This document shows positions 2,946 to 52,635 of a stretch of DNA of 64,000 bases, one piece after another. The stretch covers positions 13,750 through 77,749 of the forward strand of contig CAXHJY010000719.1 in NCBI GenBank assembly GCA_964016885.1, read 5' to 3'. Source of the stretch: Eledone cirrhosa. Its lineage: Eukaryota. Within the stretch, counting starts at the first letter, position 1. Each line of letters begins with the position of its first letter. The notes under the pieces are model-generated. The model had not been told where the DNA came from. It saw only the letters and a list, made by a program, of their open reading frames with translations, and ran no database searches. The position numbers were made by a program, and so were the translations under genes.

Positions 2946-3140
2946 CGCTTTTCTTTTTAGAATCATACACTGAACTTAGAATATTTAATCCGGAACTGAA
3001 AACTAGTTCACGAGAGAATATGTTTTTATTCACACCGCCTCATCATTATTTTTAATCCTTTTATTTTGATAGTAACAAATTTCTGTATCCTCATTTATTT
3101 GCGTTCGTCACTCGATGGAGTTTTCATCAGTTAGTTTCCT

Positions 3141-3391
3141 ATGACGATGGATTTGTTGCTGAGATGGAGACATTGGATCCGTCCATTAATAATGACTTTT
3201 TACGGCTTGTGCCTTCTCGTGGCCTTGCCTCTTTGCGTCGTAGAATTGCACAAAGCCGGGGCCGAAACTCATGTGGAAGGTTGGTTTGTCGGAGGCATTT
3301 TCGTCATGATGGCTCTGCCGATCTCTTTATGGGGAATTCTCCAACATCTTATCCATTATACTCAAGCTCATCTTCAACGTCACATAATCAG
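3141..3391 (+). CDS. TMEM184C: First coding exon of a transmembrane protein 184C-like gene (OST-alpha family)
   Basis: WRHWIRPL...PLCVVEL...WFVGGIF...PISLWGILQHLIHYTQAHLQRHIIR closely resembles the N-terminus of vertebrate TMEM184C. It ends at a consensus donor AG|GTAAGA (phase 2). Confidence 0.92.
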
Positions 3392-3602: not shown

Positions 3603-3750
3603 AGAGTCTGCGGTACTGAGACCGAGGAGACCACTAATCATGGGAGTACTCGATGTATGGGGAGATGCAGAGTATATATATATATATATATATATATAAA
3701 TGAAAGGTATAGAAAATATTGTAGCAAAAAGCCAACAGTATTCCATAATA

Positions 3751-3801
<51 letters not shown>

Positions 3802-3840
3802 ATATTAAATAAATGGAAACTATATTTATAAAACCATATT

Positions 3841-3901
3841 TATTCTATTATATATATTTCAAGGGTACCAAAACTTTGGTACGCTTTCATCAGATAAAAT
3901 A
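3841..3901 (-). ncRNA. Type I hammerhead ribozyme (mirror copy)
   Basis: Reverse complement of 4041-4101. Confidence 0.8.
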
Positions 3902-4040
3902 CAAAGTTTGTTTTATAAATTTTGACATAACCAAGAAAAGATACCTTAACGGTTCAAGTTTTTCTTGGATAATCCAAGAAAAACTTGAATCGTTAAGGTA
4001 TCTTTTCTTGGTTATGTCAAAATTTATAAAACAAACTTTG

Positions 4041-4101
4041 TATTTTATCTGATGAAAGCGTACCAAAGTTTTGGTACCCTTGAAATATATATAATAGAAT
4101 A
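4041..4101 (+). ncRNA. Type I hammerhead ribozyme, minimal palindromic stem III
   Basis: TATTTTAT-CTGATGA-AAGcGTACCAAAgtTTTGGTACcCTT-GAAA-TATAT-ATA^ATAGAATA. Stems I and II and the core are intact. Confidence 0.85.
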
Positions 4102-4140
4102 AATATGGTTTTATAAATATAGTTTCCATTTATTTAATAT

Positions 4141-4207
<67 letters not shown>

Positions 4208-4926
4208 TATAAGTAGGCGCATATTACATACAATGGCAATTATATCAAGAATGCTCCCACCCTCTTTTCGTTATATTAAAAAACAAACACTTTCATAAAA
4301 ATATTATTTAACGAAAACATTTGCGAAAAACATCTCAAGTTCAAACTACTTTAAGGTGTTCTTTAAGTAATATTTGTACTTTTAACCATGCACTAGGCTA
4401 TATATGTTAAGGGTATTGAAAATAAAGTTGAGTTATTTACACATTAATGCTCTAATTAAGACGGTCCCATACAATTAGTACTAATTATAATTATTCATTA
4501 GGTCAGAGTTCACGAGGGATCCTCTAATTGGTCGCTCGATCTGTTAGGAATAGCAGCCAATTCCCCGTCAAATTATGTCCTACTGCTAAAACAGGAATGC
4601 CTTTGATCATGCGACTGTTCGACTCTAGGGCTAAACAACAACAACATACTTGGATAAATTCAGTCGTCGATAGCTCTCAACTCGTACGATAAAGACGGTC
4701 TAGCTGAGCTAAGGAGCGAGGGTATTTTAGCACGGGGTCGATCGACGTGCTAAAAATAGCAACCAAATATCTTTAAAATCACACCCCCACAGTCTTAAAA
4801 AAGAAAGTAAATATTAGGCTATCATTGACAATAGAGCACGAAATATATACCGAACTTGTCCTTTGGACTGAGTGCTCTACCAACTTTGGATATAAGCTCC
4901 CGTTTTTCCACTACTATATATTTCTC

Positions 4927-8183: not shown

Positions 8184-9130
8184 CTACAGAAACTGTTTCC
8201 TACCACAAATGTCTATGGTAAAAAGTTTGTCCGTTTTTGCCAGGACACGGTAGGGTCCTGTATAGGGTGGTACAAGTGGTCCTTTCACTGAGTCTTTATG
8301 TAGAAAAACGTGAGTCCAAGAAGTAATGTTTTTAGTAACCAAAGATTTAATCGTCTGTTGACGTGTTCCCATAGGCGGAAGATCATTGAAATATGATCGC
8401 AATCGGTTAATATATAACGTAGGATCTTCCCGCGATGCGTCGACTGGGACTAACATCTGTCCCGGTAAGGATAAAGGTGTTCCGTACAGCAATTCCGCTG
8501 GGGAATATCCGAGATCCTCCCTGACCACTGCGCAACAGCCAAGAAGAACAATTGGTAGATATTCACTCCATCTTTGCTGGTCGGGATAAGCATGCAATGC
8601 TGCTTTTAATTGTTGATGAAAGTGTTCTATCATGCCATTTGACGCCAGGTGGTAACTAGTAATTCTAATACAATGTATCCCTAAGATTTTAGAAAGTTCA
8701 TGGAAGAGATGTGATTCAAATTGTCCGCCATGGTCAGTGGTGATCGTGGAAGGGACACTGTATCGCGAAATCCAGCCAGACATCAGAGCTCGTGCTACCG
8801 ATTCTGCTGAAATCTCTTCGAGAGGAATGGCTTCAGGCCAACGTGTAAAACGGTTGATGCACGTAAGAAGGTATGTTTATCCATGACTGACCGGCCAAGG
8901 TCCAACTAGGTCGATATGAATATGGTCAAAGCGGGCATCTGGAGCGTTGAATGTGCCCAGAGGTGCTTGAATGTGTTTGTGCACCTTAGACTTCTGGCAA
9001 GGTATGCAGGAACGAGACCATGCAGTGATATCTCGTCTCATATTTGGCCAAAAGAATCTAGCCGTAATGAGTTTCACTGATGAATGGATTCCAAGGTGTG
9101 AGAGCTTGTGTAACGTATCGAAAACTGTTC
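8184..9130 (-). pseudogene. Gypsy integrase (frameshifted)
   Basis: H..H/C..C zinc motif (FFWPNMRRDI...CIPCQKSK), HIDLVGP, TTDHGGQFES, SNGMIEHFH, C-terminal PYTGPY. Confidence 0.9.
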
Positions 9131-9329
9131 ACCGATGAAGTTCCGGAACGAAGGGTTGAGGTGAATCAGTCGATATGTCACACAGGATGCTTGTGTCAGA
9201 ATTGTGCACAGGTAATTGTTTGAATTTGCACGTCGCAATTTTGGTTGCAGATTAATCCAAATCGTCCAAAGCAGGCTGGTCAGCAGCGAGCAAACGTAGA
9301 TCAATATCAGTTTTTGTCGATTAGGTAAA

Positions 9330-10532
9330 CGAGATAATGCATCTGCCGCTAAATTCTGTGATTCAGGAATATGGCGTATATCACTAGTGAATTGTGATAC
9401 ATAATCTAAATGTCGAGTTTCACGTGGCGAGTATCTTTCGGGTTTCGCTTTGAGAGCAAATGTCAAAGGACGATGGGCCGGGAAAATCGTAAACGGGCGT
9501 CCTTCCAACGAATGCTGGAAGTGTTTGATTGCCAAGTACATCGCTAACAGTTCTCTGCCGAAAGTACTGTATCAGGTTTCAGCGGGTTTAAGCTGTTTTG
9601 AGAAATATGCAAGTGGTTGCATCTTCTGGTTGTGGTACTGTTGCAAAACTGCACCTACTGCTGTGCCTGATGTATCAACGACCAGTGAAAACTGGGCATC
9701 AGGCACAGGATGTGCAAGCAGGGTGACATCAGCTAATTCCTGTTTCACTCTGGAATAAGCTTCGAGTTGAGCAGGGTCTAAAGAAATAGATTCGTTTTTC
9801 TTTTTTCGATTCCGCAACAGTTCAGAAAAAGGTGCTATGCGCTCAGGACATGGAATAAAACGACGGTAATAATTTAGCAGTCCCAAGAACTGACGTAATT
9901 GACGTAATGATGTAGGAGGAGGTAATTCTTGAAGAGCTTTCACTTTATCTGGTGGAGGTGATATGCCTGTAGGACTAATGGTGTGTCCTAGAAAAACTAG
10001 CGAAGACGCACCAAATATACACTTCGCGGGGTTAATGCGAACTTGGTACTTCTTAAAACATTGAAATAACAAACGAAGGTGTTTAACATGTTCCTCTGGA
10101 GATGTGCTAGCAACGAGTACGTCGTCTATATAGCAGTATACAAAATCCAGGTCTCTGGTGATTTCGTCCATGAAGCGTTGAAAGGTACTAGCGGCGTTGC
10201 GTAGACCAAAGGGCATCGTTAGGAACTCAAAAGCACCAAAGGGTGTAGTGATAGCAGTCTTCGGAATATCAGCTGGATTAAGTGGCATCTGATGATACGC
10301 TCTGACTAAATCCAGTTTAGAAAAAACTGTGCATCCATGTAAGGAAGAAGCAAAATCCTGAATGTGTGGGATCGGGTACCGTCATCACGTTTAATTGGCG
10401 AAAGTCCCCAGTCGGACGCCAATCGCCGGAACGCTTTGGAACCAAATGCAAAGGAGAGGCCCACGGACTGGAGGAAGGGCGTATGATCCCCAGCTGCAGC
10501 ATGTGGTTAAATTCAGCCTTCGCCGCTTTCAA
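9330..10532 (-). pseudogene. Gypsy reverse transcriptase / RNase H (frameshifted)
   Basis: [57 protein letters not shown]. Confidence 0.93.
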
Positions 10533-11016
10533 TTTCTTCGCAGAGAGGCAGTGAGAGCGTGAAAATACAGGAGCGCCAAGTTTCGAAATGTTTTGTGGAG
10601 TGAGTAGGCTTGCTTACCACAAAATTCAAATTTGTCAATTCCGGGAAGGAATTTAGAAGCGACTGGAAAGGGTCCTCGGAAGCGGCGATGAAGAGTACCG
10701 GGCTGATAGATGAGACAGTAGATCTCAAACCCAGAACGGAGAGTTCCGTATTAGCATCCAACAACCGGCGTCTGTGCATATCCACTAAGAGGTTATAGTG
10801 GTGCAGGAAATCCGAGCCTAGAATAGGGTAAGGCAAATCAACGACTGTGAAAATCCATGTGAAGTCTCTTCGCAATTCCAGGTTCAAAGAACGAGAAATT
10901 TGACCATATGTGGAAATAGGAGAATGATTTACGGCTTCCAGAGAAATGGATGAAACTAGCGGCTTCTCCTTGAGAAGTTTTAGCGGCCATATGCTGCAAA
11001 CAGCGCCTGTATCCAT
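10513..11016 (-). pseudogene. Gypsy aspartic protease
   Basis: DTGA catalytic motif and ILGSDFL. Confidence 0.88.
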
Positions 11017-11055
11017 CGAGCTTGGGAAAACATGTCAGTTATGAAGAACGCACGA

Positions 11056-11871
11056 TTATTTGGGAGTGTCAGAGGAGACTGTGCCGTGCTCAGGTCTCCT
11101 GAAATTCGTTTCCCTGGTTGGAAAAGGAACAGGGCTGTCTACAACAGCGTGCCGCCACGCCAAAAAGGCTGTGATAGTATCACAGTCCTGGCTTGCTGTG
11201 TGGCGGTGGCGTGGTGCAGGCGAACGGCTCTGTAAACGACATCTGGGCGATTGAGCCCTGGAGAAACTCAATCTTCTCACCTTTTTGGTGAGTTGTGCTA
11301 TGGCTTGAAGAATTGCTGTAGACGTGAGCGACTGATCGGTGTGAACAGCAGCCGCTGGAGAGAACGAAGAGACCTCAGCCGGCGGCTGAGGTGTAGAGAA
11401 GGAGGCAGGCTTTCCTGTGAAACTCATTATTTTGTCTGCCGAAGATGCCAGTTGCTCGACTGAGCTAGTCTCCATCATAGGCGCCAATATCGCCTGGACA
11501 TTGGGCGGCAGCCTCGAAAAGAAAAGCTGTCTCAGGAGGGCGCTGTCAGCTGGAGCGTCCTCCGCCAGTTCTTTCATTCGACGCAGGAACTGGCTCGGCG
11601 TCCGATCACCCAAATGCTCGTCATTTACTAGGGTTTGAAATCTCTTCTCTGCGGACAACAAGGTACGCTGCAGAACCTCGCGCTTAACGCTCTCATAGGT
11701 GGCTCCCGGGGCCGGATCAGTAATCAGATCCTTAACAACTGTCGTTAAAGACGCCGGGTAAGCATTCAAAAGAATATGTAGTTGTCTGTCTTCGGACGTT
11801 ATGCCATTCGCAGCAAAATGCGATTCAATCTGTGCGAACCAGACACGGACGTCGCCTGCAAACGCTGGCAA
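11056..11871 (-). pseudogene. Gypsy gag-like ORF
   Basis: WFAQIESHF...LGDRTPSQFLRRM...LPPNVQAIL...LASSADKI, located upstream of PR. Confidence 0.85.
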
Positions 11872-12510
11872 TGAAGTTCTACCTCTCGTGAATTAAGGTA
11901 TGCCTGTAAGCAATAGAGAACAACAGGGAAATTGCAGGCCAAAAGGAATCCAAGGGAAAAGAAAAATATAAAATAAAAACAATGATATTTTCTTTCGTTG
12001 TTGAAGAGACAAATGTTAAGAATAAAAAAAAAAAAAATTTTCTTTTCTTTTATATTTTTCAAAATGCCGTTGCCCTAAAGTCAATTTGCCGGGAAAACAA
12101 ACGAAGAAGACGGAAGTCAGCCATTATGAGCTCTCCGGAAATGAAGGCAAAAATCTTTTTTTTTTAATACGGCGTCACCCAATCAGAATTTGAAGAAGAC
12201 GGCCGGCGCCATGATGGATTTCCCGTGCAATATTTAGATTTCAAGGCAGTAAAAAAAATAAATACCATAACTCACGCTGTCGCGTACATTTCCCAAGAAG
12301 TCCATATGAATTTTGATTTTTTTTTTTTTTAATCATATATTTCAATCGAGCTGCTGCTATGGTATGTGTCCATCAGAGAGAGAAAAAATTTTGTTGTCCA
12401 TAATTTTCTTAATCGGTTCCAAATTTTTTTTTTTGTATAAAGTAAATCCGTATCACCATTTATTAGGTAGAGTGGTGAGTGGCATGTTGATCATGTCGGC
12501 AGGTCACCAT

Positions 12511-16565: not shown

Positions 16566-16782
16566 CTAATTTTTAACCTTCAATCCCTGACTCTTAGGCC
16601 CTTTTCAAATTCTCTTAACCCCCCATAACCCATCCCTTTTACAACTCCGACAACTAATATAAAAGAGCCCCCTTAGAATATAGACCCCAAATATACAAGC
16701 GGAGCTGCTGATGTATACCACAATTTCAAACTGCTAATCTTGAGTGAAACGTTGATGTAAATAATGAACTTACAATCACCTG

Positions 16783-16838
16783 TTATATGCCTTGAAAAGT
16801 CCCACCATATGGTCGGACGAAACGGCTGTCGGCAATAA
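16783..16838 (+). ncRNA. Type I hammerhead ribozyme, U3:A8 core variant
   Basis: TTATaTGCC-TTGAAAA-GTCCcACCAtaTGGTcGGAC-GAAAC-ggct-GTC^GGCAATAA. Confidence 0.78.
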
Positions 16839-16907
16839 ACTTGTTATAATGTCATAATAGTTCCTTTGTTCTTTTTCATTTATATATATATATATATTTA
16901 TATATAT

Positions 16908-17354: not shown

Positions 17355-18236
17355 TATTGTCATACTTTGGGAGGGTCATGTTGCCAATAAGAAACACACG
17401 CACCAGTTGCTTTCACTTCAATTTATTATATATTTATAAATTTACAAATTTATAAATTTCTGGTTGGTTGGTTGGTTCCACAACCAGATAGTTGTTTATA
17501 TATAGTCATAGTTCTTTCGTCACACACTCTGTGACCTCTTCAGTGACTGGGGATTCCTTTCTTTGTTTCTGTGCCTCTCCTTTGTTCTGTCCTACGCCAT
17601 TTTGTTTCTGTGTGTGTGTTGTGTGCTCAGTCTGCGCATGCGCCACATCCGGGTGTCTGTGTTGTTTATGTTCATTCATCTATTTGTTATTTACATGTTA
17701 CTGGTTGGTTGTTTGTTCTATGTGTGTGTGTGTTTTCATTTTGTCCTTAATTGTAAGTTGTGATGTTGCTGTTCCACTCATATTTTCTATTTAATTTTGG
17801 TTGTAATTCTTTTATGTTTATTGCCTCTGTAATTTGTCTAAACATTGCGTCTTTTCTGTGTGTAGATTCTATTTTATTTCTATGTTCTCTAATTTACCCT
17901 TGTGTTCTATCTTAGCATGTTGGTAGAGTACAGATGATTCTTTATTATCTTGAAGGTCTCGCCAGTGTTCATTTATCCGTTCCCCTATACTACGAGCTGT
18001 CTCACCTATGTACACTATATTTTGTCTCTACATTGTCCTTCAGTACATCTTATGCTATACACTACATTTCTAGTTTTACTGTTAATATGGGGGCTTATTT
18101 TACAGGTTACACATTTCTTATCTATACATGAGGGTCTTTGAAAAGGGTATGTCTTGCTAATAAGTGTTTTTACGGAGGTACCTGGTCTTTCTACTATCTT
18201 AATATTGAGTTTATGTTTATTTAGGGCCCTTCTAAA
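17355..18236 (-). mobile_element. Penelope-like family 1, 3' fragment (GIY-YIG C-terminus + terminal repeat)
   Basis: Collinear with 49990-50990. Confidence 0.9.
17504..17548 (-). ncRNA. Minimal hammerhead ribozyme (PLE family 1)
   Basis: AGTCA-CTGAAGA-gGTCACAgagtgTGTGAC-GAAAgaacTA^TGACT. Confidence 0.7.
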
Positions 18237-18265
18237 TGATCAGTGAGAGCAAGGTTGAGTTCCGT

Positions 18266-19348
18266 GGGGGGGGGGGGGGTATTTTGTTAGAGATGCTTAC
18301 TGACTGTAGTAGGTTTTATTTTGTATTTAGGTAAGGCGGGTCTTCTCTATTACTGAGTACCCGCCAAAGGTCTCGGTCCAGTGACATTGTCTTGGAGAGG
18401 TGTAAGTGTGTGAGGTCGGAATTTATCAGCTCGTCCCAGGTTTTTCTGGGTCTGCCTCTCCGTGGCTACCGTCTATCTTTATTGCCCTGCACTTTGTTAT
18501 ACAGCTGTCGTCTTTCATGCGCATCACGTGACCATACCAACGTAGCCTTCACGTATATTACTATTACACATCCAGCGGAGCATGCCAGCTTCGTTCCTCT
18601 CTAGTCTGCGTATATCCTCTGCACACAATGCCCAGGTCTCACTGCCATGCAACATTGCTGTTCGTATGCAGGCATCATACAACCTGCCTTTCATTTTTAG
18701 GGAGAACCCTTTAGCGGCTAATAGTGGTATAAGCTCTCTGAACTTTTTCCCATCCACTCTAGCTACTGTACTTTCAGAGCACCCCTCCCCCACTGCTGAT
18801 TTTGTCACCCAGGTAACGGAAGCTGTCCACTATTTCTATAGAACCCTCTGTGCAATTGAAAGAGCTAGTATTTTGTGGGCACTTGCTGCTACTTATTGCA
18901 CCAGAGCACCGGCCACATGTAAAATCTATGTTCTTAGTTAGCTTACCTGTGATCCCACTACATCTTTTATGCACCCATACTTTGCATTTGGGGACATAAA
19001 ATGGAGTTTCTACCTACGCCTTTCTACACACTGAGCATGGCCATTTCCCGGAAGGGACCGGCGCCTTATTTTCTTTCCTACAAACTAGAACTTTAGTCTT
19101 AGCCAGGTTAATTTTAAGGCCTTTTGATTCTAGGCCGTGCTTCCATGTTTGGCATTTCTTCTCTAGCTCGGCCATTGATTCAGCTATGAGCGTTAGATCA
19201 TCTGCGTATAGGAGTTCCCATGGGCAGCCGGTCTTGAACTCCTCTGTTATGGCCTGAAGGGCAATAATAAATAGTAGGGGACTAAGACAGAGCCCTGATG
19301 GACACCAACTTTTACGCTAAACCCTTCGCTATATTCGTTGTTAATTCT
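18266..19348 (-). mobile_element. RTE LINE family A fragment with internal deletions
   Basis: [17 protein letters not shown], zinc finger, FRYLG. Homologous to 21407-23177. Confidence 0.9.
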
Positions 19349-19505
19349 ATATGTGTATATATATATACATATATAATATGTATATATATATTTATATACA
19401 TATATATATATATATACATATGTATACATATATATATACATATATATATATACATATATACATATGTATACATATATATATACATATATATATATACATA
19501 TATAC

Positions 19506-19550
<45 letters not shown>

Positions 19551-19558
19551 CTATATAC

Positions 19559-19610
<52 letters not shown>

Positions 19611-19644
19611 TATAAGATCAAAAGATGGTTAAAGGAGTTCCATA

Positions 19645-19715
19645 TATTTTATTATGCGCATTTCAAAAACAAACATCATCAAGCAATAATATTTGTGTTT
19701 TCATCAGATAAAACA
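19645..19715 (-). ncRNA. Type I hammerhead ribozyme in a short island between (TA)n arrays
   Basis: TGTTTTAT-CTGATGA-long stem II (AAAcACAAATA...TGTTTGTtTTT)-GAAA-TGCGCA-TA^ATAAAATA. Confidence 0.8.
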
Positions 19716-19767
19716 GGAGAACATGATATGAAGGCTAAAAAACATTGTTGATAGTGCAGTTTTAAAT

Positions 19768-21406
<1,639 letters not shown>

Positions 21407-23177
21407 AGTAATAGCGCAACTAATCAGAGAGAGAATTGACCTAGATGAAATGCAGTTCGGGTTTGTGTCAGGCAAAAGTACCACAGACGCTCTTTTCATA
21501 GTACGACAACTACAAGAGAAGTACCTAGCTAAAGGTAAACCCCTCTACTTAGCTTTTGTCGACTTGGAGAAAGCCTTCGACAGAGTCCCCCGCTCCATTA
21601 TCTGGTGGGCTCTTAGAAAACTAGGCGTTGACGAATGGCTTGTGAGGGCTATACAAGCCATGTATAAAGAAACAGTCAGCAAGGTTAGAATTAACAACGA
21701 ATATAGTGAAGAGTTTAGCGTAAAAGTCGGCGTCCATCAGGGCTCTGTTCTCAGTCCACTACTATTTATTATTGCCCTTCAGGCTATAACAGAGGAGTTC
21801 AAGACAGGCTGCCCATGGGAACTCCTATACGCAGACGACCTGACACTCATAGCGGAATCAATGGCCGAGCTAGAGAAGAAATTCCAAACATGGAAGCACG
21901 GCCTAGAGTCAAAAGGACTTAAAATTAACCTGGCTAAGACCAAAGTACTAGTTTGTAGGAAAGAAAACAAGGCGGCGGTCCCTTCTGGGAAATGGTCGTG
22001 CTCGGTGTGTAGGAAAGGCGTAGGTAGAAACTCCATTTTATGTCCTAAATGCAAAGTATGGGTGCATAAAAGATGTAGTGGGATCACAGGTAGGCTAACT
22101 AAGAACATAGATTTTACATGTGGCCGGTGCTCTGGTGCAATAAGTAGCAGCAAGTGCCCACAAACTACTAGCTCTTTCAATTGCGCAGAGGGTTCTATAG
22201 AAATAGTGGACAGCTTCCGTTACCTGGGCGATAAAATCAGCAGTGGGGGAGGGTGCTCTGAAAGTACTGTAGCTAGAGTCAGAACTGGTTGGAAAAAGTT
22301 CAGAGAGCTTATACCACTATTAGCTGCTAAAGGGTTCTCACTAAAAATGAAAGGCAGGTTGTACGATGCCTGCATACGAACAGCAATGCTGCATGGCAGT
22401 GAGACCTGGGCATTGTGTGCAGAGGATATACGCAGACTAGAGAGGAACGAAGCTTGCATGCTCCGCTGGATGTGTAACAGTAATATACGTGAACGGCAAA
22501 GCATAAACGAACTAAGGAATAAATTAGAGATAAGAGGGATCAGATGTTGTTTACTCGAGAGAAGGCTACGTTGGTATGGACACGTGATGCGCATGAAAGT
22601 CGATAGCTGTATAACAAAGTGCAGGGCAATAAAGATAGACGGTAGTCACGGAATAGGCAGACCTAGAAAAACCTGGGACGAGCTGATAAACTCCGACATC
22701 ACACACTTACACCTCTCCAAGACAATGTCACTGGACCGAGACCTTTGGCGGTACTCAGTAACAGAGAAGACCCGCCTTACCTAAATATATAGTAAAACCT
22801 ACTCCAGCCAGTAGGCATCTCTAACAAAATACACCCCGTCCCACCACCCCCACCCGATCCACACCACCCCGTTCTATGTAAAGTTATGTTGGTGCCGCGC
22901 CATCGAGGCCGAAACAAATGAGATCGTGTAGGTGTCACGACAAAAAAACACACAGTCCACGCTGTAATGTGGCCGTGTAGGCAACACGGTAAAAACCTCC
23001 CAGACCCACACTGTAAATGTGGTTGGTGTTAGGAAGGGCATCCAACTGTAGAAAACCTGCCAGACAGTCCTATGCGAGCAAGACAATCACTCTTGCCTCA
23101 AGTGGGACTACCCCCGTCCAAACCCATGCAAGCGTTGAACACGGACGTTAAACGTTGATGATGATGATGATGATGAT
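21407..23177 (+). mobile_element. RTE LINE family A, 5'-truncated, open RT frame to 22784
   Basis: [32 protein letters not shown], (GAT)n tail. Confidence 0.95.
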
Positions 23178-23184
23178 ATATATG

Positions 23185-23215
<31 letters not shown>

Positions 23216-23282
23216 GTATATATATATATATGTATATATATATATGTATATATATATGTATATATATATATGTATATATATG

Positions 23283-23337
<55 letters not shown>

Positions 23338-23388
23338 GTATATATATATGTATATATATATGTATATATGTATATGTATATATATATG

Positions 23389-23461
<73 letters not shown>

Positions 23462-23470
23462 GTATATATA

Positions 23471-23950
23471 TTTCGTTTCTGAATTTGTTTAGTAAGATTC
23501 TTTATCTGAAATCGTGTGTTGAAACCGATATTGTTATACTTTGGGAGGGTCATGTTGCCAATAAGAAACACACGCACCAGTTGCTTTCACTTCAATTTAT
23601 TATATATTTATAAATTTATAAATTTACAAATCTACAAACTTATAAATTTCTGGTTGTGTGTTGTGTGCACAGAGTACACAACACACACACAGAAACAAAA
23701 TGGCGTAGGACAGAAGAAAGGAAAGGCACAGAAACAAAGAAAGGAATCCCCAGTCACTGAAGAGGTCACAGAGTGTGTGACGAAAGGACTATGACTATAT
23801 ATAAACAACTATCTGGTTGTGGAACCAACCAACCAACCAAGTTTGTAGATTTGTAAATTTATAAATTTATAAATATATAATAAATTGAAGTGAAAGCAAC
23901 TGGTGCGTGTGTTTCTTATTGGCAACATGACCCTCCCAAAGTATAACAAT
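23471..23950. mobile_element. Non-coding palindromic cassette of PLE family 1 terminal repeats
   Basis: 23529-23645 is inverted relative to ~23840-23950, and the + arm carries an HHR. Confidence 0.85.
23752..23796 (+). ncRNA. Minimal hammerhead ribozyme (PLE family 1)
   Basis: AGTCA-CTGAAGA-gGTCACAgagtgTGTGAC-GAAAggacTA^TGACT. Confidence 0.72.
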
Positions 23951-23988
23951 ATATATATATATATATATATATATGTAATATATATATG

Positions 23989-24647: not shown

Positions 24648-24966
24648 CATTTTACGTCCGCTTTTCCCTGCTTGCAGGGGTGGGACGAGAACTGATTCTG
24701 GCATGATTTCTACAGCTGGATGCCCTTCCTAACACCAACCTCATTTACAGTGAGTGCTGGGTGCTTTTTTGCCGTGGCACCTCCACGACCACTTTGCAGT
24801 GGAATGACAGGGACCCCAGTCCCTATCATCTCATTTCTACAGCTGAGTAAACTGGAGCAATGTGAAATAAAGTGTCTTGCTCAAGGAAACAACACATCAC
24901 CCAGTCTGAGAATTGAACTCACAACCTTTCGATTGCAAGGCTAATGCTCTAACCACTAAGCCATGT
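24614..24966 (-). mobile_element. CORE-like SINE copy with a poly(A) tail
   Basis: Reverse complement of 16908-17235, T-run at 24614-24647. Confidence 0.9.
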
Positions 24967-25592: not shown

Positions 25593-25768
25593 ATACATAT
25601 ATATATATACATATGTACATATATATATATCTATGTATATATGTATATATATCTATATATCTATATATATATATATATATAAGTACGTTATTCCGGGTTG
25701 AATTGGAGGTAACCACAGTAAGTAAGGTACTCAATACATTGCAGAGGATAAAAGTTTTAATATAGATG

Positions 25769-25819
25769 AGATTCTACAGGACTAGAACTGTTTCATTCTT
25801 TAGAAATCATCAGGAATCT
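25769..25819 (-). ncRNA. Type I hammerhead ribozyme (mirror copy)
   Basis: Reverse complement of 25919-25969. Confidence 0.68.
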
Positions 25820-25918
25820 GGGTATCAAAAAATAAATATGGTATTTATAGGTAGAGAAAAATAAATATGGTATTTATAGGTAGAGACCTATAAATACCAT
25901 ATTTATTTTTTGATACCC

Positions 25919-25969
25919 AGATTCCTGATGATTTCTAAAGAATGAAACAGTTCTAGTCCTGTAGAATCT
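25919..25969 (+). ncRNA. Type I hammerhead ribozyme
   Basis: AGATTC-CTGATGA-tTTCtaaaGAAt-GAA-ACAGttctagtcCTGT-A^GAATCT. Stem II is weak with a U.U closing pair. Confidence 0.7.
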
Positions 25970-26036
25970 CATCTATATTAAAACTATATATATATATGTA
26001 CATATATATATCTATGTATATATATAGATATATAGC

Positions 26037-26293: not shown

Positions 26294-29200
26294 ATCATCA
26301 TCATCATCATCACGGTTTTATGTCCGTTCTTCCACGCTAGCATGGGTTAGACGGGTTGTCCTGTTGTGTGCAGTGTCTGGTCGGCTGACCATGCCTTGCT
26401 CATACAGGAACTGATCTGGCTTGATTTCTACAGCTGGATGCCCTTCCTAACACCAACTTCATTTACAGTGAGTGCTGGGTGCTTTTTCGTGGCGCCTACA
26501 CGTCCACTTTACAGTGTGGGCTGGGTGCTTTTTTGCTATGGCACCTCCACGACCACCTTGCGGTGGGGGGTGTGGTGGCATATTGTTTATATGCTTCAGC
26601 ATGTACCCATGGAAGGTCGGGTACTCTGTATTACTGCGTGACGCCAGAAGTCACGGTCGTGTGTCATTGTCTTTGAGAGGTGTAATTGGGTAAGGTCGGC
26701 TTTTATCACCTCATCCCAGGTCATCTTGGGTCTCCCCACTCTGCGGTTTCCATCAACTTCTAGTGCTCTGCACCTTTTTATGCAGCTGTCATCCTTCATA
26801 CGCATCACATGTCCATACGAGCGCAACCGCCTCTCCTGCACACAGCATTTGATTCCTCTTATGCTCAGTCTCTCTCTCAATTCATTTATGCTTTGTCGTT
26901 CACGTATATTACTGTTACACATCCATCGGAGCATGCAGGCTTCGTTTCTCTCTAATCTACGTAAGTCTTCCACCTTCAGCGCCCAGGTCTCACTACCATG
27001 CAACATCGCTGTTCGGATACACGCATCATACAGTCTGCCTTTCATTCTGAGGGAGAAGCCTTTTGCAGCTTGCAGTGGTAGTAGTTCCCTAAACTTCTTC
27101 CATCCCGTTCTTACCCTAGGTATTGTACTTTCTGAACAGCCACCTCCGTTGCTAATTCGGTCACCTAGGTAGCAGAAGCTGTCTACTGTATCTACAGGGC
27201 CCTCCCAGAGATTGGTGGTACTTGTTTCCTGTGGCTGTTTGCTGCTTGCTGTTTCAGCACAGCTGCTGCATGTGAATCCTACATTCTTAATTAAGCTTCC
27301 TGAGATCCCGCTACATCTCTTGTGTACCTATTGTTTGCATTTGGGGCAGAGAATGGAGTTCCTACCTACACCTTTCCTACATACTGAGCAAGGCCATTTC
27401 CCTGCGGGGATCTGGGTTCTGTTTTCTCGTCTACTTACAAGGACCTTAGTCTTTGTCATGTTGACTTTGAGACCCTTTCTTTCTAGTCCCTGCTTCCAGG
27501 TTTGGAATTTATTCTCTAGTTCTACCATAGATTCAGCTATGAGTGCGAGGTCATCAGCATACAGGAGTTCCCATGGGCATCCGGTCTTAAACTCCTCCGT
27601 TATTGCCTGCAGGACTATGATGAACAGGAGAGGGCTAAGAACAGAGCCCTGGTGGACCCCAACCTGTACGCTAAATTCCTCGCTATACTCATTGCTAATC
27701 CTAACTTTGCTGACTGCTCCCCTATACATGGCTTGTACCGCTTTCACAAGCCATTCATCTACTCCTAGTTTTCTAAGAGCCCACCAGATTACCGCACGTG
27801 GAACTCTGTCAAAGGCTTTCTCAAGGTTGACAAATGCCAAGTAGAGTGGCTTACTTTTAGCTAGGTACTTTTCCTGTAATTGCCTCACAAGGAAGAGGGC
27901 ATCAGTGGTGCCTCTTCTTGGTACAAACCCAAATTGCATCTCGTCTATTTTCACCCGGTCCCTAATCAGCTGTGCTATAACTCTTTCTGTTACTTTCATG
28001 ACCTGGTCCATCAACTTTATACCTCTATAGTTTCCTCTATCTAGTGCATCGCCTTTACCTTTGTAGCAGTTGACAATGATGCTACTGCACCAATCTTTTG
28101 GTATGGCCCCTTCTAGTATTACCTGGTTAACGATACGTGTGGTTATAGTGTGACCTACAGACCCAGATGCCTTCAGCATCTCGGCAGCTATCCCCGATGG
28201 ACCGGTTGCCTTCCCCATCTTCATATCTCTGATTGCCTTACTTACTACGCTGCCGCTGACTTGTACTGCTGGTCCCTCTATAGGGTCTACTTGGGGTAGG
28301 GTCTCTTCTTCCCATGCATTCTCCTCATTTAGTAATCTATCATAATGACTCTTCCATGCATCTTTCTTCTCAGCACTTGTGAGGGCAAGCTCACCATTAT
28401 CATTCCGGATACACTTCTCTCCAATGACATCACAACTATCTCTGACAACTGCCTCGCAATCTTGAATACCTCCTGTTTCTGGTCCTCACGTTGTAAAACA
28501 TGCTTGAATTTTCTATCCTCTGCTTCCCTCCTAGCTAAGTATACTTGTCGCCTAGCTTCCCTCTTGGTTTCTATGTAATGTACCCTGCCTCCCCCGTTCT
28601 TCCATTCTTTCCATGCCTGTCTCTTGGCCTTGACTGCTTCATCTACCTTATTGTTCCACCACCAAGTCACTCTCCTCCTGCTTGAGGTCTTACTCCAGCC
28701 ACAGACCTCGTCCGTCGCCTCTAGTAAATTATTTTTTAGGAACTCCCAGTTCTCTTCTACATTAAATGTCTCTATCTGTTCTTCTTTACTGTCGTAGGCG
28801 TTGAGTAAAATATCTTTAAATCTGTTACTGGTTGAGGGGACTTTCAGCTTCCAGATCTTTCTTCTCCAGGTTGGCCTCTGTTTCAGGGCTCGTTTAGTTC
28901 TGACCGTGAGGTCGCTGACAACTAAGCTATGTTGGGATGTACATTCCTCACTAGGGAAGGCTTTTTTGTTTACGACCGTCCATCTGTCACGTCCTCTGAT
29001 GAGGATAAAATCTAACTGAGTAGAGTGCTCCCCTGATCTATAGGTGATCAGGTGGTTGTCGGGTTTTTTAAAGTTTGTGTTACATATCGACATGTCATTG
29101 GCGACGCAGAATTCTAGAAGTCTGAATCCTTCCTCATTCCTTGTGCCAACTCCATGGCCTCCATGTACTCTATTGAAGCCGTCGCTGTGTTTACCTACGT

Positions 29201-29824
29201 GTCCGTTAAAATCTCCTGCGATGATTAGGAAGTCATTGTCGTTTATTAGAGCAGTAGTGTGCATTAGGGACTCGTAAAACCTATCCTTAAGTTCGTCTGG
29301 CAGCCCCGATTGGGGTGCGTCAGCTGATATTATTGTGGTAATTGTCTTATTCAGGACTAATCTGAGTTTAATGATTCTTGCATTTACCCTGTACACTGAG
29401 ATTACTTTATCTATCCACTTGTCAGCTAACAGTATACCTACACCACCCATCCCATCGTCATTTCCCACCCAGAAAAATTTGTAGCACTGACTTTTTCCTA
29501 CAAGGACTCTAGCAGACTCTCCTCTCCATCTAGTCTCTTGCACACAGCATACATCAACTTCCTTTCGCTCTAGCATTTCTACGATTTCTCCTGCTCTTCC
29601 TTTCATTGAGCCTACATTGATGGTACCAACTCGGAGTTTTGGGCATTTGTCGACACTCGTAGGGGAGGGTCTCTGTGTTGGCGCTTCACGTGGGTGCTTG
29701 GTAGCTCGCAGATTCATATTTCATCTATTGATTCAGAGTTGCTCAAATGTATTCTCAGCTCACCCATCCATAACGGTGGGAAAATTGAGGGCTAGAAGAA
29801 CAGTGGTGGTGGGGTAATGGCAAT
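26294..29824 (-). mobile_element. RTE LINE family B, near full length (APE-RT, one frameshift and one stop seen)
   Basis: ORFs 29717-28329 (TINVGSM, VQETRW, GDFNGH, SQH), 28224-27328 (YADD) and 27045-26596. (GAT)n tail. Confidence 0.95.
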
Positions 29825-33321: not shown

Positions 33322-33360
33322 GATATTAATAAATGGAAACTATATTTATAAAACCATATT

Positions 33361-33425
33361 TATTTCATTATACATATTTCAGGGATAGCAAATTAAATTA
33401 TGGTATGCCTTCATCAGACAAAATA
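33361..33425 (-). ncRNA. Type I hammerhead ribozyme
   Basis: TATTTTGT-CTGATGA-AGGcATACCA..TGCTATcCCT-GAAA-TATGT-ATA^ATGAAATA. Confidence 0.78.
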
Positions 33426-34024
33426 CAATATATAACAGTTTTACAACTAAGCTTTGACGTACCCTATTAAAATGCAACCATTGTTTTTGGAAGTCATCCG
33501 GATAGTGAATTGTTTATATAACTTTAATAAGTCATAGTGTTAAGGACAATTAGAAAAAGACGGAGAGAAAGAAAACGACAGAGAGAAAGAAAACGTGGAG
33601 AAATATCGGAGAGAGAGAGAGATGCATGGAGAAAAAAAAGAAAGAGATAAGTAAAGACAGGAGGAAAGGAAGAAAGAAGAAAAAAGGAAGAAATTAAAAA
33701 AACAGAGGAAAGCAACAGAGAGATATTAAGTCAACAGACAGATAGAAAAACTCAAGAGAGAGAAATGTTATATATAGAGAGAGGGAGATTATGAAAACTT
33801 TACGTCATGTCATGTTAAGTTGAGTTAACAATTCATATGAAATGAATAATAAAAATATAAATATTAATATTCATGAATGGGACATAGATATATAATATGA
33901 GAAATTAAACATTGTTTAATAATGACTATATTTTTAGTTTAAACCTTGAGATCAATATACCAAAATTTGGGTTTAATCTCCAAAATGTACACATTGCTAG
34001 AGAAAGTCAGTATCTCAGGCAAAG

Positions 34025-34074
<50 letters not shown>

Positions 34075-34259
34075 GCACGTCCTGAAAATAGAAATTATAT
34101 TTACTCAAGTCAACAATATAGACATATAAAACGCAGACGATTTCTCTTAATCACTGCTATACATTCGTTGTGTTATAAAAAGTTCACAGTATATATACAC
34201 ATAAATATATACGATTAACATTCATGACTTCGTATATATGATTACCATTCATGCATTTA

Positions 34260-35235
34260 ATATGGGTTTTAATATTTAGTGAGAAAGGGGGAGCAAACCA
34301 TAATATGTTTCTAGTTCTATTTCTTTTTCGGCTTTTGGAATTATTGTAATGTTTTCTATTATAGTTGTTAAAGTTGTTACCATAATTAAAATTGTTATTA
34401 TTTTGGTTAGTTTGCTTATTATTATTATTATTATCAATGTATTTAATTTTATTTCTATATCCAGCTCTACCTAACGCTTCATTGTAATAATGCGCTTTTT
34501 CATCAAATATATTTTTATTAGATGAAATTCTTGAAATTCTTTCTTGAACAGAGTTCACTATAGTATTTTTAACAGATCTGGGGTGATGAGAGTTAAAATT
34601 AACATAATTCAAGTTCTCATTTAGTTTGTGAAATGGATAATGAAGACGTGTTGAGATTTAGTGTTACGTCAAGAAAATTGACTATTTTATGGTTATTCTC
34701 TATTTCTACTTTTAGATTATGGTAATTAAAAAATTGTATAATTTGTTTTCTTTTCCTATTTAGTTCACAGCTATTATTTTGTATTATTTTGTCATCACGA
34801 TATAAGCCTCTGGTTACACCCAGTATTTTTCTATGTAGCGAATTAATTATAAATAGGCCCACAAGGTCCGTTACCTGAGCTCAGTCTGATGATCCCATAG
34901 TTATGTCGAAATTATTATTTCTATCTGCCCTAGTCCAGAGTTGGTTATTAAATGCTATCAATGTTTTCCTTGCCGATAATATAATGTGCATTTCATTGCT
35001 AGTTAGGTCAGTAGGTTTAAATGTGTAATTTAGTGCCTTATTCAGTAGATTAGGAGTGATAGATGAGTAGTAGTTAGCAATATCCAGCTGAATAAACTTA
35101 TTATTATAGTTATATTTAATTTCTTTAAACCAATCGATAACCTCACTAGTCCCTTTCCATAATTTTAAGTAAGATAAATTAGGTAAGTTTTTAATTTGTT
35201 GTATTACCCTGTCTAGAATATTTTTGCTAAATGAT
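34260..35235 (-). pseudogene. Penelope-like reverse transcriptase (degenerate)
   Basis: FIQLDIANYYSSI, FDITMGSSD*AQVTDLVG, GLYRDD, VNFLDVTL, YVNFNSHHP, WFAPPFS. Confidence 0.88.
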
Positions 35236-36034
35236 GACGCACGCAGATATTTATTTATACATATATAGGTGTATATGTATATATGTGTGTGTATGTATAT
35301 GTGTGAGTAAAAATTATGTTGCATAACCACGCAGTTTGGATTGCAGAAATGTTAAATGCATGAATGGTAATCATATATACGAAGTCATGAATGTTAATCG
35401 TATATATTTATGTGTATATATACTGTGAACTTTTGATATATATATATATATATATATTTGTGTGTCTTTGCCTGAGATACTGACTTTCTCTAGCAATGTG
35501 TACATTTTGGAGATTAAACCCAAATTTTGGTATATTGATCTCAAGGTTTAAACTAAACATATAGTCATTATTAAACAATGTTTAATTTCTCATATTATAT
35601 ATCTATGTCCCATTCATGAATATTAATATTTATATTTTTATTATTCATTTCATATGAATTGTTAACTCAACTTAACATGACATGACGTAAAGTTTTCATA
35701 ATCTCCCTCTCTCTCTCTATATAACATTTCTCTCTCTTGAGTTTTTCTATCTGTCTGTTGACTTAATATCTCTCTGTTGCTTTCCTCTGTTTTTTTAATT
35801 TCTTCCTTTTTTCTTCTTTCTTCCTTTCCTCCTGTCTTTACTTATCTCTTTCTTTTTTTTCTCCATGCATCTCTCTCTCCGTCGTTTTCTTTCTCTCCGT
35901 CTTTTACTAATTGTCCTTAACACTATGACTTATTAAAGTTATATAAACAATTCACTATCCGGATGACTTCCAAAAACAATGGTTGCATTTTAATAGGGTA
36001 CGTCAAAGCTTATTTGTAAAACTGTTATATATTG

Positions 36035-36099
36035 TATTTTATCTGATGAAGGCATACCATAATTTAATTTGGTATCCCTGAAATATCTATAATGAAATA
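36035..36099 (+). ncRNA. Type I hammerhead ribozyme
   Basis: TATTTTAT-CTGATGA-AGGcATACCA..TGGTATcCCT-GAAA-TATCT-ATA^ATGAAATA. Stems covary with the 4041 copy. Confidence 0.85.
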
Positions 36100-36227
36100 A
36101 ATATGGTTTTATAAATATAGTTTCCATTTATTAATATCGTATATCTACTCCAAATACTTGTCGAGTGCTTTATATCAGTTATAAAAATATTTACTTGTTG
36201 TATCCCAACAATTTTAAATAGAGCTTT

Positions 36228-44899: not shown

Positions 44900-47800
44900 C
44901 ACACCCTGCCATTATCCCACCACCACTGTTCTTCTAGCCCTCAATTCTCCCACCGTTATGGATGGATGAGCTGAGAATAAATTTGAGCAACTCTGAATCA
45001 ATAGATGAAATATGAATCTGCGAGCTACCATGCACCCATGTGAAGCGCCAACCCAGAGACCCTTCGCTACGAGTGTCGACAAATGCCCAAAACTCCGAGT
45101 TGGTACCATCAATGTAGGCTCAATGAAAGGAAGAGCAGGAGAAATCGTAGAAATGCTAGAGCGAAAGGAAATTGATGTATGCTGTGTGCAAGAGACTAGA
45201 TGGAGAGGAGAGTCTGCCAGAGTCCTTGTAGGAAAAAGTCGGTGCTACAAATTTTTCTGGGTGGGAAATGATGATGGGATGGGTGGTGTAGGTATACGAC
45301 TAGCTGACAAGTGGGTAGATAAAGTAATCTCAGTGTACAGGGTAAATGCAAGAATCATTAAACTCAGACTAGTCCTGAATAAAACAATTACCACAATAAT
45401 ATCAGCTTACGCACCCCAATCGGGGCTGCCAGACGAACTTAAGGATAGGTTTTAAGAGTCCCTAATGCACACTACTGCTCTAACAGACGACAATGACTTC
45501 CTAATCATCGCAGGAGATTTTAACGGACACATAGGTAAACACTGCGACGGCTTCAATAGAGTACATGGAGGCCATGGGGTTGGCACAAGAAATGAGGAAG
45601 GATTCAGACTTCTAGAATTCTGCGTCGCCAATGACATGTCGATATGTAACACAAACTTTAAAAAACCCGACAACCACCTGATCACCTATAGATCAGGGGA
45701 GCACTCCAGTCAGATAGATTTTATCCTCATCAGAGGACGTGACAGATGGACGGTCGTAAACACAAAAGCCTTCCCTAGTGAGGAATGTACATCCCAACAT
45801 AGCTTAGTTGTCAGCGACTCACGGTCAGAACTAGACGAACCTGGAAACAGAGGCCAACCTGGAGAAGAAAGATCTGGAAGCTGAAAGTCCCCTCAACCAG
45901 TAACAGATTTAAAGATATTTTACTCAACGCCTACGACAGTAAAGAAGAACAGATAGAGACATTCAATGTAGAAGAGAACTGGGAGTTCCTAAAAAATAAT
46001 TTACTAGAGGCGACGGATGAGGTCTGTGGCTGGAGTAAGACCTCAAGCAGGAGGAGAGTGACTTGGTGGTGGAACAATAAGGTAGATGAAGCAGTTAAGG
46101 CCAAGAGACAGGCATGGAAAGAATGGAAGAACGGGGGGAGCAGGGTACATTACATAGAGACCAAGAGGGAAGCTAGGCGACAAGTATACTTAGTTAGGAG
46201 GGAAGCAGAGGATAGAAAATTCAAGCATGTTTTGCAACGCGAGGACCAGAAACAGGAGCTATTCAAGATTGCGAGGCAGTGTGTCAGAGATAGTTGTGAT
46301 GTCATTGGAGAGAAGTGTATCCGGAATGATAAAGGTGAGCTTGCCCTCACAAGTGCTGAGAAGAAAGATGCATGGAAGAGTCATTATGATAGATTACTAA
46401 ATGAGGAGAATGCATGGGAAGAAGAGACCCTACCCCAAGTAGACCCTATAGAGGGGCCAGCAGTACAAGTCAGCAGCAACGTAGTAAGTAAGGCAATCAA
46501 ATATATAGAGATGTGGAAGGCAACCGGTCCATCGGGTATAGCTGCCAAGATGCTGAAGGCATCTGGGTCTGTAGGTCACACTATAACCACACGTATTGTT
46601 AACCAGGTAATACTAGAAGGTGTCATACCAAAAGATTGGTGCAGTAGCATCATTGTCAACTGCTACAAAGGTAAAGGCGATGCACTAGATAGAGGAAACT
46701 ATAGAGGTATAAAGTTGATGGACCAGGTCATGAAAGTAACAGAAAGAGTTATAGCACAGCTGATTAGGGACCGGGTGAAAATAGACGAGATGCAATTTGG
46801 GTTTGTACTAGGAAGAGGCACCACTGATGCCCTCTTCCTTGTGAGGCAGTTACAGGAAAAGTACCTAGCTAAAAGTAAGCCACTCTACTTGGCATTTGTC
46901 GACCTTGAGAAAGCCTTTGACAGAGTTCCACGTGCTGTAATCTGGTGGGCTCTTAGAAAACTAGGAGTAGATGAATGGCTTGTGAAAGCGGTACAAGCCA
47001 TGTATAGGGGAGCAGTCAGCAAAGTTAGGATTAGCAATGAGGATAGCGAGGAATTTAGTGTACAGGTTGGGGTCCACCAGGGCTCTGTTCTTAGCCCCTC
47101 CATGTTCATCATAGTCCTGCAGGCAATAACGGAGGAGTTTAAGACCGGATGCCCATTGGAACTCCTGTATGCTGATGACCTCGCACTCATAGCTGAATCT
47201 ATGGGAGAACTAGAGAATAAATTCCAAACTTGGAAGCAGGGACTAGAAAGAAAGGGTCTCAAAGTCAACATGACAAAGACTAAGGTCCTTGTAAGTAGAC
47301 GAGAAAACAGAACCCAGATCCCCTCGGGGAAATGGCCTTGCTCAGTATGTAGGAAAGGTGTAGGTAGGAACTCCATTCTCTGCCCCAAATGCAAACAATG
47401 GGTACACAAGAGATGTAGCGGGATCTCAAGAAGCTTAATTAAGAATGTAGGCTTCACATGCAGCAGCTGTGCTCGGACAGCAAGCAGCAAACAACCACAG
47501 GAAACAAGTACCACCAATCTCTGGGAGGGCTCTGTAGATACAGTAGACAGCTTCTGCTACCTAGGTGACCGAATTAGCAACGGAGGTGGGTGTTCAGAAA
47601 GTACAATAACTAGGGTAAGAATGGGATGGAAGAAGTTTAGGGAACTACTACCACTGCTAGCTGCAAAAGGCTTCTCCCTCAGAATGAAAGGCAGACTGTA
47701 TGATGCGTGTATCCGAACAGCAATGTTGCATGGTAGTGAGACCTGGGTCCTGAAGGTGGAAGACTTACGTAGATTAGAGAGAAACGAAGCCTGCATGCTC

Positions 47801-48432
47801 CGATGGATGTGTAACAGTAATATACGTGAACGACAAAGCATAAACGAATTGAGAGAGAGACTGAGCATAAGAGGAATCAAATGCTGTGTGCAGGAGAGGC
47901 GGTTGCGCTGGTATGGAAATGTGATGCGTATGAAGGATGACAGCTGCATAAAAAGGTGCAGAGCACTAGAAGTCGATGGAAAGCGCGGAGCGGGGAGACC
48001 CAAGATGACCTGGGATGAGGTGATAAAAGCCGACCTTACCCAATTACACCTCTCAAAGGCAATAACACACGACCGTGACCTTTGGCGTCACACAGTAATA
48101 CAGAGTACCCGACCTCCCATGGGTACAAGCTGAAGCATATAGGCAATATGCCCCCACACCCCCCACCGCAAGGTGGTCGTGGAGGTGCCACGGCAAAAAA
48201 GCACCCAGCCGACAGTGTAAAGTGGACGTGTAAGCGCCACGATAAAGCACCCAGCACTCACTGTAAATGAAGTTGGTGTTAGGAAGGGCATCCAGCTGTA
48301 GAAATCAAGCCAAATCAGTTCCTGTATGAGCAAGGCATGGTCAACCGACCAGTTACTGCCCACAACAGGACAATCCGTCTAAACCATGCTAGCGTGGAAG
48401 AACAGACGTAAAATGGTGATGATGATGATGAT
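44900..48432 (+). mobile_element. RTE LINE family B, full-length ORF region 45012-48133 (stop at 45453, frameshift near 45820)
   Basis: APE motifs, 691-aa RT frame, (GAT)n tail. The 5' boundary is uncertain and may extend to ~44750. Confidence 0.95.
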
Positions 48433-49872: not shown

Positions 49873-50146
49873 TATATAATAACTTGTGTGTTACACCTCT
49901 ATTCTTTTAACTATATATATATATATATATATTTCGTTTCTGAATTTGTTTAGCAAGATTCTTTATCTGAAATCGTGTGTTGAAACCGATATTGTTATAC
50001 TTTGGGAGGGTCATGTTGCCAATAAGAAACACACGCACCAGTTGCTTTCACTTCAATTTATTATATATTTATAAATTTATAAATTTACAAATTTACAAAC
50101 TTCTGGTTGGTTGGTTGGTTCCACAACCAGATAGTTGTTTATATAT

Positions 50147-50191
50147 AGTCATAGTCCTTTCGTCACACACTCTGTGACCTCTTCAGTGACT
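50147..50191 (-). ncRNA. Minimal hammerhead ribozyme (PLE family 1)
   Basis: Same motif as 23752-23796. Confidence 0.72.
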
Positions 50192-50497
50192 GGGGATTCC
50201 TTTCCTTTGTTTCTGTGCCTTTCCTTTCTTCTATCCTACGCCATTTTGTTTCTGTGTGTGGGTTGTGTGCTCAGTTTGCGCATGCGCCACATCCGGGTGT
50301 CTGTGTGTGTTTGTGTTCATTTATCTATTTGTTTATTTATTTATTTATTTATTTATTGTTGGTTGGTTGTTTGTTCTATGTGTGTGTGTGTTTTCATTTT
50401 GTCCTGTGTGTGTTTTCATTTTGTCCTTAATTGTAAGTTGTTTGTTCTATGTGTGTGTGTGTTTTCATTTTGTCCTGTGTGTGTTTTTATTTTGTCC

Positions 50498-52422: not shown

Positions 52423-52467
52423 AGTCACTGAAGAGGTCACAGAGTGTGTGACGAAAGGACTATGACT
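52423..52467 (+). ncRNA. Minimal hammerhead ribozyme (PLE family 1)
   Basis: Same motif as 23752-23796. Confidence 0.72.
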
Positions 52468-52635
52468 ATATATAAACAACTATTTGGTTGTGGAATCAAC
52501 CAACCAACCAGAAATTTATAAGTTTGTAAATTTGTAAATTTATAAATATATAATAAATTGAAGTGAAAGCAACTGGTGCATGTGTTTCTTATTGGCAACA
52601 TGACCCTCCCAAAGTATAACAATATATATATATAC

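Follow-up and report, generated by a model that had tools for sequence, protein, structure and literature searches.

In Penelope elements, transcription starts in the pLTR, and copies that are inverted and truncated at the 5' end have been described for Penelope-like elements (PLEs), according to the available text of Craig et al. (2021, PMC8557442). The enzyme of a PLE from Anolis starts reverse transcription internally and extends both nicked strands; the hammerhead ribozyme of that element needs protein, and no RNA-seq ends mapped to its site, in the accessible part of the study (PMC11167929). In the accessible sections of Cervera and de la Pena (2014, PMC4209133), a single minimal hammerhead of S. 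mansoni showed no cleavage and dimers showed low activity, and pairs of ribozymes on opposite strands, 100-700 bp apart, were already noted. As to introns, a second-hand account, available in part, states that hammerhead-cut introns were still spliced and that a faster ribozyme blocked splicing (PMC2995048), and tandem retrozymes are depleted from Xenopus introns in the available text of a recent preprint (bioRxiv 10.64898/2026.07.22.740005).

In this study, we analysed a window of 64,000 nt, the whole stretch of Eledone cirrhosa DNA given above, which contains a hammerhead motif in one arm of a palindrome (Table 1). We consider it very likely that this palindrome arose when a young Penelope-like retroelement inserted, head to head and truncated at its 5' end, in intron 1 of TMEM184C, with the hammerhead buried in a predicted 173-bp hairpin as a likely by-product of insertion and probably with no effect on the host gene.

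Table 1. Features of the 64,000-nt window, with positions counted from its first letter.
Feature	Position	Strand	Remarks
TMEM184C-like exon 1 (ATG at 3141)	3022-3391	+	translation; single genome match; X4 contig
Splice donor GT of exon 1	starts 3392	+	
Intron 1 of TMEM184C	3392-64000	+	continues past the end of contig C746, which stops at the window end
(TA)n target tract, left	3748-3796		
Palindrome	3797-4145 (349 nt)		arms 3797-3970 and 3972-4145
Left arm, 175-nt 3' end of PLE	3797-3971	-	98.9% to natural long copy L060
Left-arm hammerhead	core from 3893	-	within left arm
Right arm, 174-nt 3' end of same PLE	3972-4145	+	98.3% to L060
Predicted element hairpin at 5'-end hot spot	3974-4011	+	about -172 to -135 from element 3' end; -11.3 kcal/mol in L060
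Minimal type I hammerhead	4041-4101	+	core 4049-4085; predicted site 4093/4094
Hammerhead stem I	4041-4048/4094-4101	+	8 bp, A-U/G-U pairs throughout
Core box CUGAUGA	4049-4055	+	
Hammerhead stem II	4056-4066/4071-4081	+	10 bp, one C-C mismatch, A-U closing pair
Core box GAAA	4082-4085	+	
Hammerhead helix III region	4085-4092	+	self-complementary, eight bases
(TA)n target tract, right	4146-4211		
Broken LTR-retrotransposon-like frames	8184-11892	-	label from look of translation
U3-A8 core variant hammerhead	16783 (16775-16845)	+	antisense partner sought in window, not found
LINE-like copies	19953-22784, 26596-29720, 45009-48133		label from look of translations
Sense hammerhead cores fitting descriptor	23757, 36043, 52428	+	
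tRNA-like repeat head	24902-24965		
Imperfect hammerhead	25925	+	core words present, stem I offset, stem II closure poor
Related, more diverged PLE insertion	33322-36138		inverted ends; hammerheads 33417 (-) and 36043 (+); broken RT fragments between
7-kb (TA)-rich array	53075-60184		

The motif at 4041-4101 was compared with the published descriptor of minimal type I PLE hammerheads. The results showed that it has CUGANGA, GAAA and UH, helices I and II, and a palindromic helix III. Helix II is closed by A4056-U4081 instead of the G10.1-C11.1 pair, which is typical of minimal PLE hammerheads yet lies outside the published descriptor and is thus no bar to membership. The preliminary description of this locus had called the motif an intact sense-strand ribozyme with predicted cleavage after 4093; the core and the predicted site stand, but helix III has only 1-2 bp in the monomer. 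Rfam hammerhead models gave no match to 4041-4101 at the gathering score and none at E ≤ 5. Rfam microRNA matches lay below the gathering score and were rejected, as they reflect the long hairpin. Across both strands of 229 kb of the gene, a structure descriptor returned 20 motif matches, compared with 0-1 per shuffled strand (2 in 10 shuffles); the motifs at 16783 and 25925 escape this descriptor, and the partner of 23757 (17495-17555) was lost to its 6-kb limit, for which the counts given here were corrected. When the left arm was left out of the RNA, forcing the ribozyme fold cost 2.4 kcal/mol, or 5.2 kcal/mol with a helix III pair, and the fold with the A15.1-U16.1 pair had an ensemble share near 2e-4, all in a model of secondary structure only. 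Cofolding of two ribozyme copies produced a helix II swap and no helix III dimer, which is uninformative on dimerisation. Even unmasked, judging by the papers on other elements, the ribozyme would presumably cut poorly, needing a partner copy for helix III and possibly an element protein.

It had also been claimed that the upstream arm is a near-perfect complement and that a hairpin of about 175 bp would compete with the ribozyme fold, and here the structure prediction agreed. The arms have a sole mismatch, G3952/T3990, which forms a G-U pair in the plus-strand RNA. The hairpin predicted for the palindrome RNA has an energy of -263.5 kcal/mol, and forcing the ribozyme fold inside it cost about 75 kcal/mol in secondary-structure prediction. 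The left arm is therefore predicted to serve as an antisense mask of the hammerhead in the host pre-mRNA: it would be transcribed first, the right arm would zip onto it, and the ribozyme would not fold. Since a head-to-head insertion places the antisense arm first and the sense ribozyme second on both strands, masking follows from geometry. The window's contig, C746, is unplaced and 77.7 kb long, as might be expected if the palindrome were an assembly artefact made from a fold-back read; this is almost certainly not its origin, given that the arms differ at one site and that 24 palindromes of the family on C1-C3 have unequal arms and distinct junctions.

For the host gene, the results showed that 3141-3391 encodes the N-terminus of a TMEM184 protein, which we take by resemblance to be paralogue C, and family PF03619 matches exons on C4. 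A 1,786-nt contig from run X4 spans 3022-3391 and continues into exon 2, which lies on the minus strand of C4 at about 167,045,712, 31.7 kb from a 200-N gap, with later exons following on C4; exon 2 was searched for across the window and not found. Since the X4 contig carries exons 1 and 2 side by side, intron 1 exists and the gene yields spliced mRNA. X4 is a run of unrecorded kind, taken as RNA because its contig is spliced; it represents a sample other than the assembly's likely source, and the X4 allele may lack the insertion. The donor at 3392, the spliced X4 contig and the 650 nt to 4041 uphold the earlier placement of the ribozyme in the pre-mRNA, 650 bp downstream of the TMEM184C splice donor. 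The assembly thus gains a link between exon 1 on C746 and the remaining exons of the same gene on C4. We infer that C746 probably fills the 200-N gap at C4:167,077,402, which would make intron 1 at least 92 kb long; no overlap was found between the ends of C746 and the flanks of the C4 gap. Over 529 nt of the exon 1 region, organism B shows 35 letter differences and 6 gaps, far more than separate the element copies (0-3%), suggesting that the insertion probably postdates the divergence from organism B.

Just upstream of exon 1, at 2394-2945, lies a palindromic remnant with two Rfam histone 3' stem-loop matches (2616-2661 minus and 2783-2827 plus). A 36-nt stretch over this stem-loop has 387 exact matches genome-wide, and in L192 (1250-2578) the stem-loop lies on the sense strand, about 140 nt beyond the point where a Merlin/ISXO2-type transposase frame (PF12762, E 7e-14) probably stops. 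SLBP-type 3' handling may apply to a DNA transposon that carries such a stem-loop. After the stem-loop, no purine-rich downstream element was evident, and a literature search for a histone-type stem-loop in a DNA transposon found nothing relevant.

The intact core, 650 nt from the donor, could be taken to indicate a regulated switch, in which editing or a helicase opens the hairpin and the ribozyme cuts the TMEM184C pre-mRNA. Long perfect hairpins are the kind of substrate that ADARs use, and the preliminary description had suggested a possible switch sensitive to editing or helicases. We simulated editing as random edits outside the ribozyme, with 12 replicates per level. With inosine read as G, the gap between the two folds stayed at 72-76 kcal/mol; under the harshest model, in which inosine was unable to pair and the ribozyme was spared, 70% editing left a mean gap of 33 and a minimum of 20 kcal/mol. 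When edits fell inside the ribozyme, all five core adenosines survived only 17% of the time at 30% editing. Editing within the ribozyme would thus hit core adenosines, and simulated editing elsewhere leaves the hairpin shut, which makes an editing switch implausible. A switch would have its two states close in energy; here they lie about 75 kcal/mol apart, and simulated editing narrowed but did not close this distance. Together with the youth of the insertion and the small share of the A15.1-U16.1 fold even in arm-less RNA (secondary structure only), these results make regulated opening of the hairpin highly improbable. Were it a host switch, the locus would represent a novel means by which a gene controls a ribozyme in its intron; the evidence favours a passenger.

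We then considered the identity of the element. By its sequence, the arm represents the 3' end of a PLE that is young and has Hydra-clade motifs. The arm query gave 1,135 first-look candidates, of which 40 were scored; the full-length ones among these were 97-100% identical, and three other loci were 100% identical. A 37-nt core had 371 exact matches genome-wide, compared with 0 for the reversed control. In long copies, a GIY-YIG frame is reached about 1.3 kb upstream, with RT ahead of it; RT motifs and YIG were found in L059, L060 and L061, and this order, RT then GIY-YIG, together with a hammerhead in the terminal repeat, is that of EN+ PLEs. The Hydra-clade features DKT, a CxCx5C linker, absence of CCHH, and CxxC..E..N..CxH were present in the long copies (L059, L060, L061 and L036), with one cysteine only between the two GIY-YIG halves; the N-terminal motif reads RWR, not RWK, in L059, the one copy in which it was seen. 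None of 4 pieces of the family's ORFs matched Pfam, and the nearest Atlas clusters scored 0.97, one being named RT/HTH_animal. A TA run directly follows the element 3' end in 42 of 84 copies, tail-like sequence lies past it in 30 of 84, and (TA)n stands on both flanks of 3797-4145. L060 and L061 bear an inverted short copy at the 5' end, and the family as a whole displays 5' truncation, inverted terminal copies and an optional 3' tail. With copies differing by 0-3%, the insertion is likely recent. By eye, a donor-like site was also seen within the arm, at about 3995, and an acceptor-like one in the 3' tail of the family (e.g. L088); lying between these two, the ribozyme could be part of a 5'-UTR intron, like that of Penelope.

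The family was surveyed in 91 insertions, namely the first 100 of the 371 listed core matches (C1 to C3) minus 9 second members of pairs. In this core-pattern sample, a palindrome was counted where an adjacent inverted arm covered the core, and copy lengths were measured against one natural copy, so that indels may shorten long ones. Adjacent palindromes were found at 24 of the 91 insertions, and their 24 junction strings all differ, indicating that the palindromes are likely separate events; an inverted partner lay within a flank of about 1.5 kb at no fewer than 28 insertions, which is a lower bound. The 5' ends were concentrated at 156-177 nt from the 3' end (38 of 91; 1.7 per nt versus 0.11 per nt at 178-300), with 13 at 178-300 and 9 at 104-155. 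Palindromes were enriched at 151-190 nt (18 of 43, compared with 6 of 48 elsewhere; Fisher p = 0.002). A literature search of partial coverage, with few subscription papers, returned no report of such a 5'-end hot spot, none of PLE hammerheads masked in introns and none of PLE twin priming, and the hot spot at 156-177 nt with its clustering of palindromes may be a new detail.

As to origin, we tentatively suggest, at somewhat less than even confidence, that the sharp upper edge of the 5' ends, at about 177 nt, is the 5' end of the element RNA and that the palindromes are two run-off cDNAs from opposite strands of one cut, joined end to end, so that the family records a step of Penelope integration. 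The endonuclease would nick both strands at (TA)n, reverse transcription would begin inside the element RNA and run off about 175 nt upstream at the RNA 5' end, and the two run-off cDNAs would then be joined, with microhomology slight or absent. A predicted hairpin (about -172 to -135) lies at the hot spot, and run-off at the start site is thus not the sole reading. Stalling and snap-back at this internal hairpin is the rival and fits less well: it predicts one short arm, yet both arms are at least 156 nt long in 18 of the 24 palindromes.

The preliminary description had listed five other sense hammerheads in the intron. All five exist; those at 23757, 36043 and 52428 fit the descriptor, while 16783 is a variant and 25925 is imperfect. 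Antisense hammerheads, absent from that list, were found in the same intron at 3893, 17543, 19707, 25813, 33417 and 50186. Among these motifs, 16783 is the best unmasked sense ribozyme candidate here, and 25753-25985 is another short palindrome, with core words on both arms (25813 minus and 25925 plus). A second Penelope-like family with inverted ends occupies 50138-52640 (GIY-YIG match at 51590-52117) and 17495-23952, and its hammerheads at 17543, 23757, 50186 and 52428 are identical or near-identical. The helix III segment varies between families and mostly remains self-complementary (4085-4092, 36043, 33417, 19707 and the C4 matches), as would be expected if elements select for dimers.

In the examined gene span, 15 hammerhead insertions comprised 10 that were paired, 3 sense copies for which no partner was found (16783; C4:166,994,693; C4:166,983,056) and 2 solo antisense copies. 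Of these, C4:166,983,056 is a long sense member of the 3797-4145 family with core words intact; no partner was found out to 6 kb, and the 290 kb of C4 examined contained none of high identity. These counts bear on a passive tolerance filter, in which ribozymes cut nascent RNA and self-masked palindromes survive in genes more than unmasked sense copies. The predicted mask and the 10 of 15 paired insertions would agree with such a filter, as would the depletion of retrozymes from Xenopus introns (bioRxiv 10.64898/2026.07.22.740005, available text) and the blocking of splicing by a fast intronic ribozyme (second-hand, PMC2995048, available in part). The Xenopus depletion indicates that genic hammerheads can be under selection, which counts against our by-product reading. 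However, if unmasked sense copies were purged, solo antisense copies should outnumber them, and 3 sense versus 2 antisense were seen, in tiny counts; the unmasked sense copy of the same family persists in the gene; related motifs are weak as monomers in the accessible sections of PMC4209133; and palindromes arise at 24 of 91 insertions, counted irrespective of gene context. The paired share of 10 of 15 in the gene (6 of 15 within 1.5 kb) stands against at least 28 of 91 for the family genome-wide, in sets that differ, the former mixing families and allowing partners up to 6.2 kb away and the latter about 1.5 kb, and the gene may conceivably hold an excess of paired insertions. Taken together, we regard the filter as unlikely. 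The earlier proposal of an off-switch that lets the host gene tolerate insertions is not supported, as the palindrome is a routine product of the family and unmasked sense copies lie in the same pre-mRNA.

ADAR or Dicer may act on the hairpin incidentally. That the hairpin matters chiefly as dsRNA, giving rise to siRNA against the element family and not masking a ribozyme, would fit a predicted hairpin of this length in a transcribed intron, and in transgenic Drosophila, rearranged Penelope copies do have siRNAs that map to their inverted regions (PMC3681739). The 3797-4145 copy is, though, one of many similar hairpins, and siRNA production is compatible with an insertion by-product as a side effect; as the main role it is quite improbable.

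Taking the palindrome as an insertion by-product, the modest use of this locus is that it belongs to a young Hydra-type family, and the sharp hot spot of truncation in this family bears on the formation of inverted ends in PLEs. It also advises caution about hammerheads called in introns of this genome, most of which are retroelement ends. If the run-off reading is true, about 100 natural junctions could test the formation of inverted pLTRs, listed as unresolved in the available text of PMC8557442, and each palindromic product would silence its own ribozyme on both strands.

Compared with the Hydra-clade PLEs, as described in the available text of Craig et al. (2021, PMC8557442), the present family is alike in its C-terminal GIY-YIG, DKT, CxCx5C linker and absence of CCHH, in the placing of E and N between CxxC and CxH, in its hammerhead and (TA)n targets, and in its optional 3' tail and inverted 5'-truncated copies; this likeness is one of motifs and descriptions. 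Unlike them, it has RWR instead of RWK in L059, and it exceeds 3.1 kb in a 5'-truncated copy, with about 1.3 kb of 3' non-coding sequence, where those elements are "generally <3 kb"; its sharp 5'-end hot spot is not among the features described there. Compared with minimal type I PLE hammerheads, in the accessible sections of Cervera and de la Pena (2014, PMC4209133), the motif shares the core boxes, a long helix II and a palindromic helix III suited to dimers, and the opposite-strand pairs a few hundred bases apart and the U3-A8 variant (16783) also have counterparts. It differs in that A-U closes helix II, where G10.1-C11.1 and one extra base are usual, and in the 8 weak pairs of helix I. 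Compared with the Poseidon element of Anolis in vitro, in the accessible part of PMC11167929, the AT-rich target, the tail and a hammerhead near the RT start are shared, and extension of both strands, as in that system, would explain head-to-head copies. Poseidon belongs to another clade, with no palindrome hot spot described there, and no ORF starting inside the 4041-4101 ribozyme was found, unlike in Poseidon. Finally, the non-LTR retrozymes in the available text of the preprint (bioRxiv 10.64898/2026.07.22.740005) resemble this locus as short non-coding type I hammerhead units from PLE ends. We rejected a retrozyme identity for 3797-4145, which has one sense ribozyme and no direct tandem units: those retrozymes consist of units repeated directly in tandem and carry two sense ribozymes, whereas the present family forms inverted pairs with a junction unique to each palindrome.
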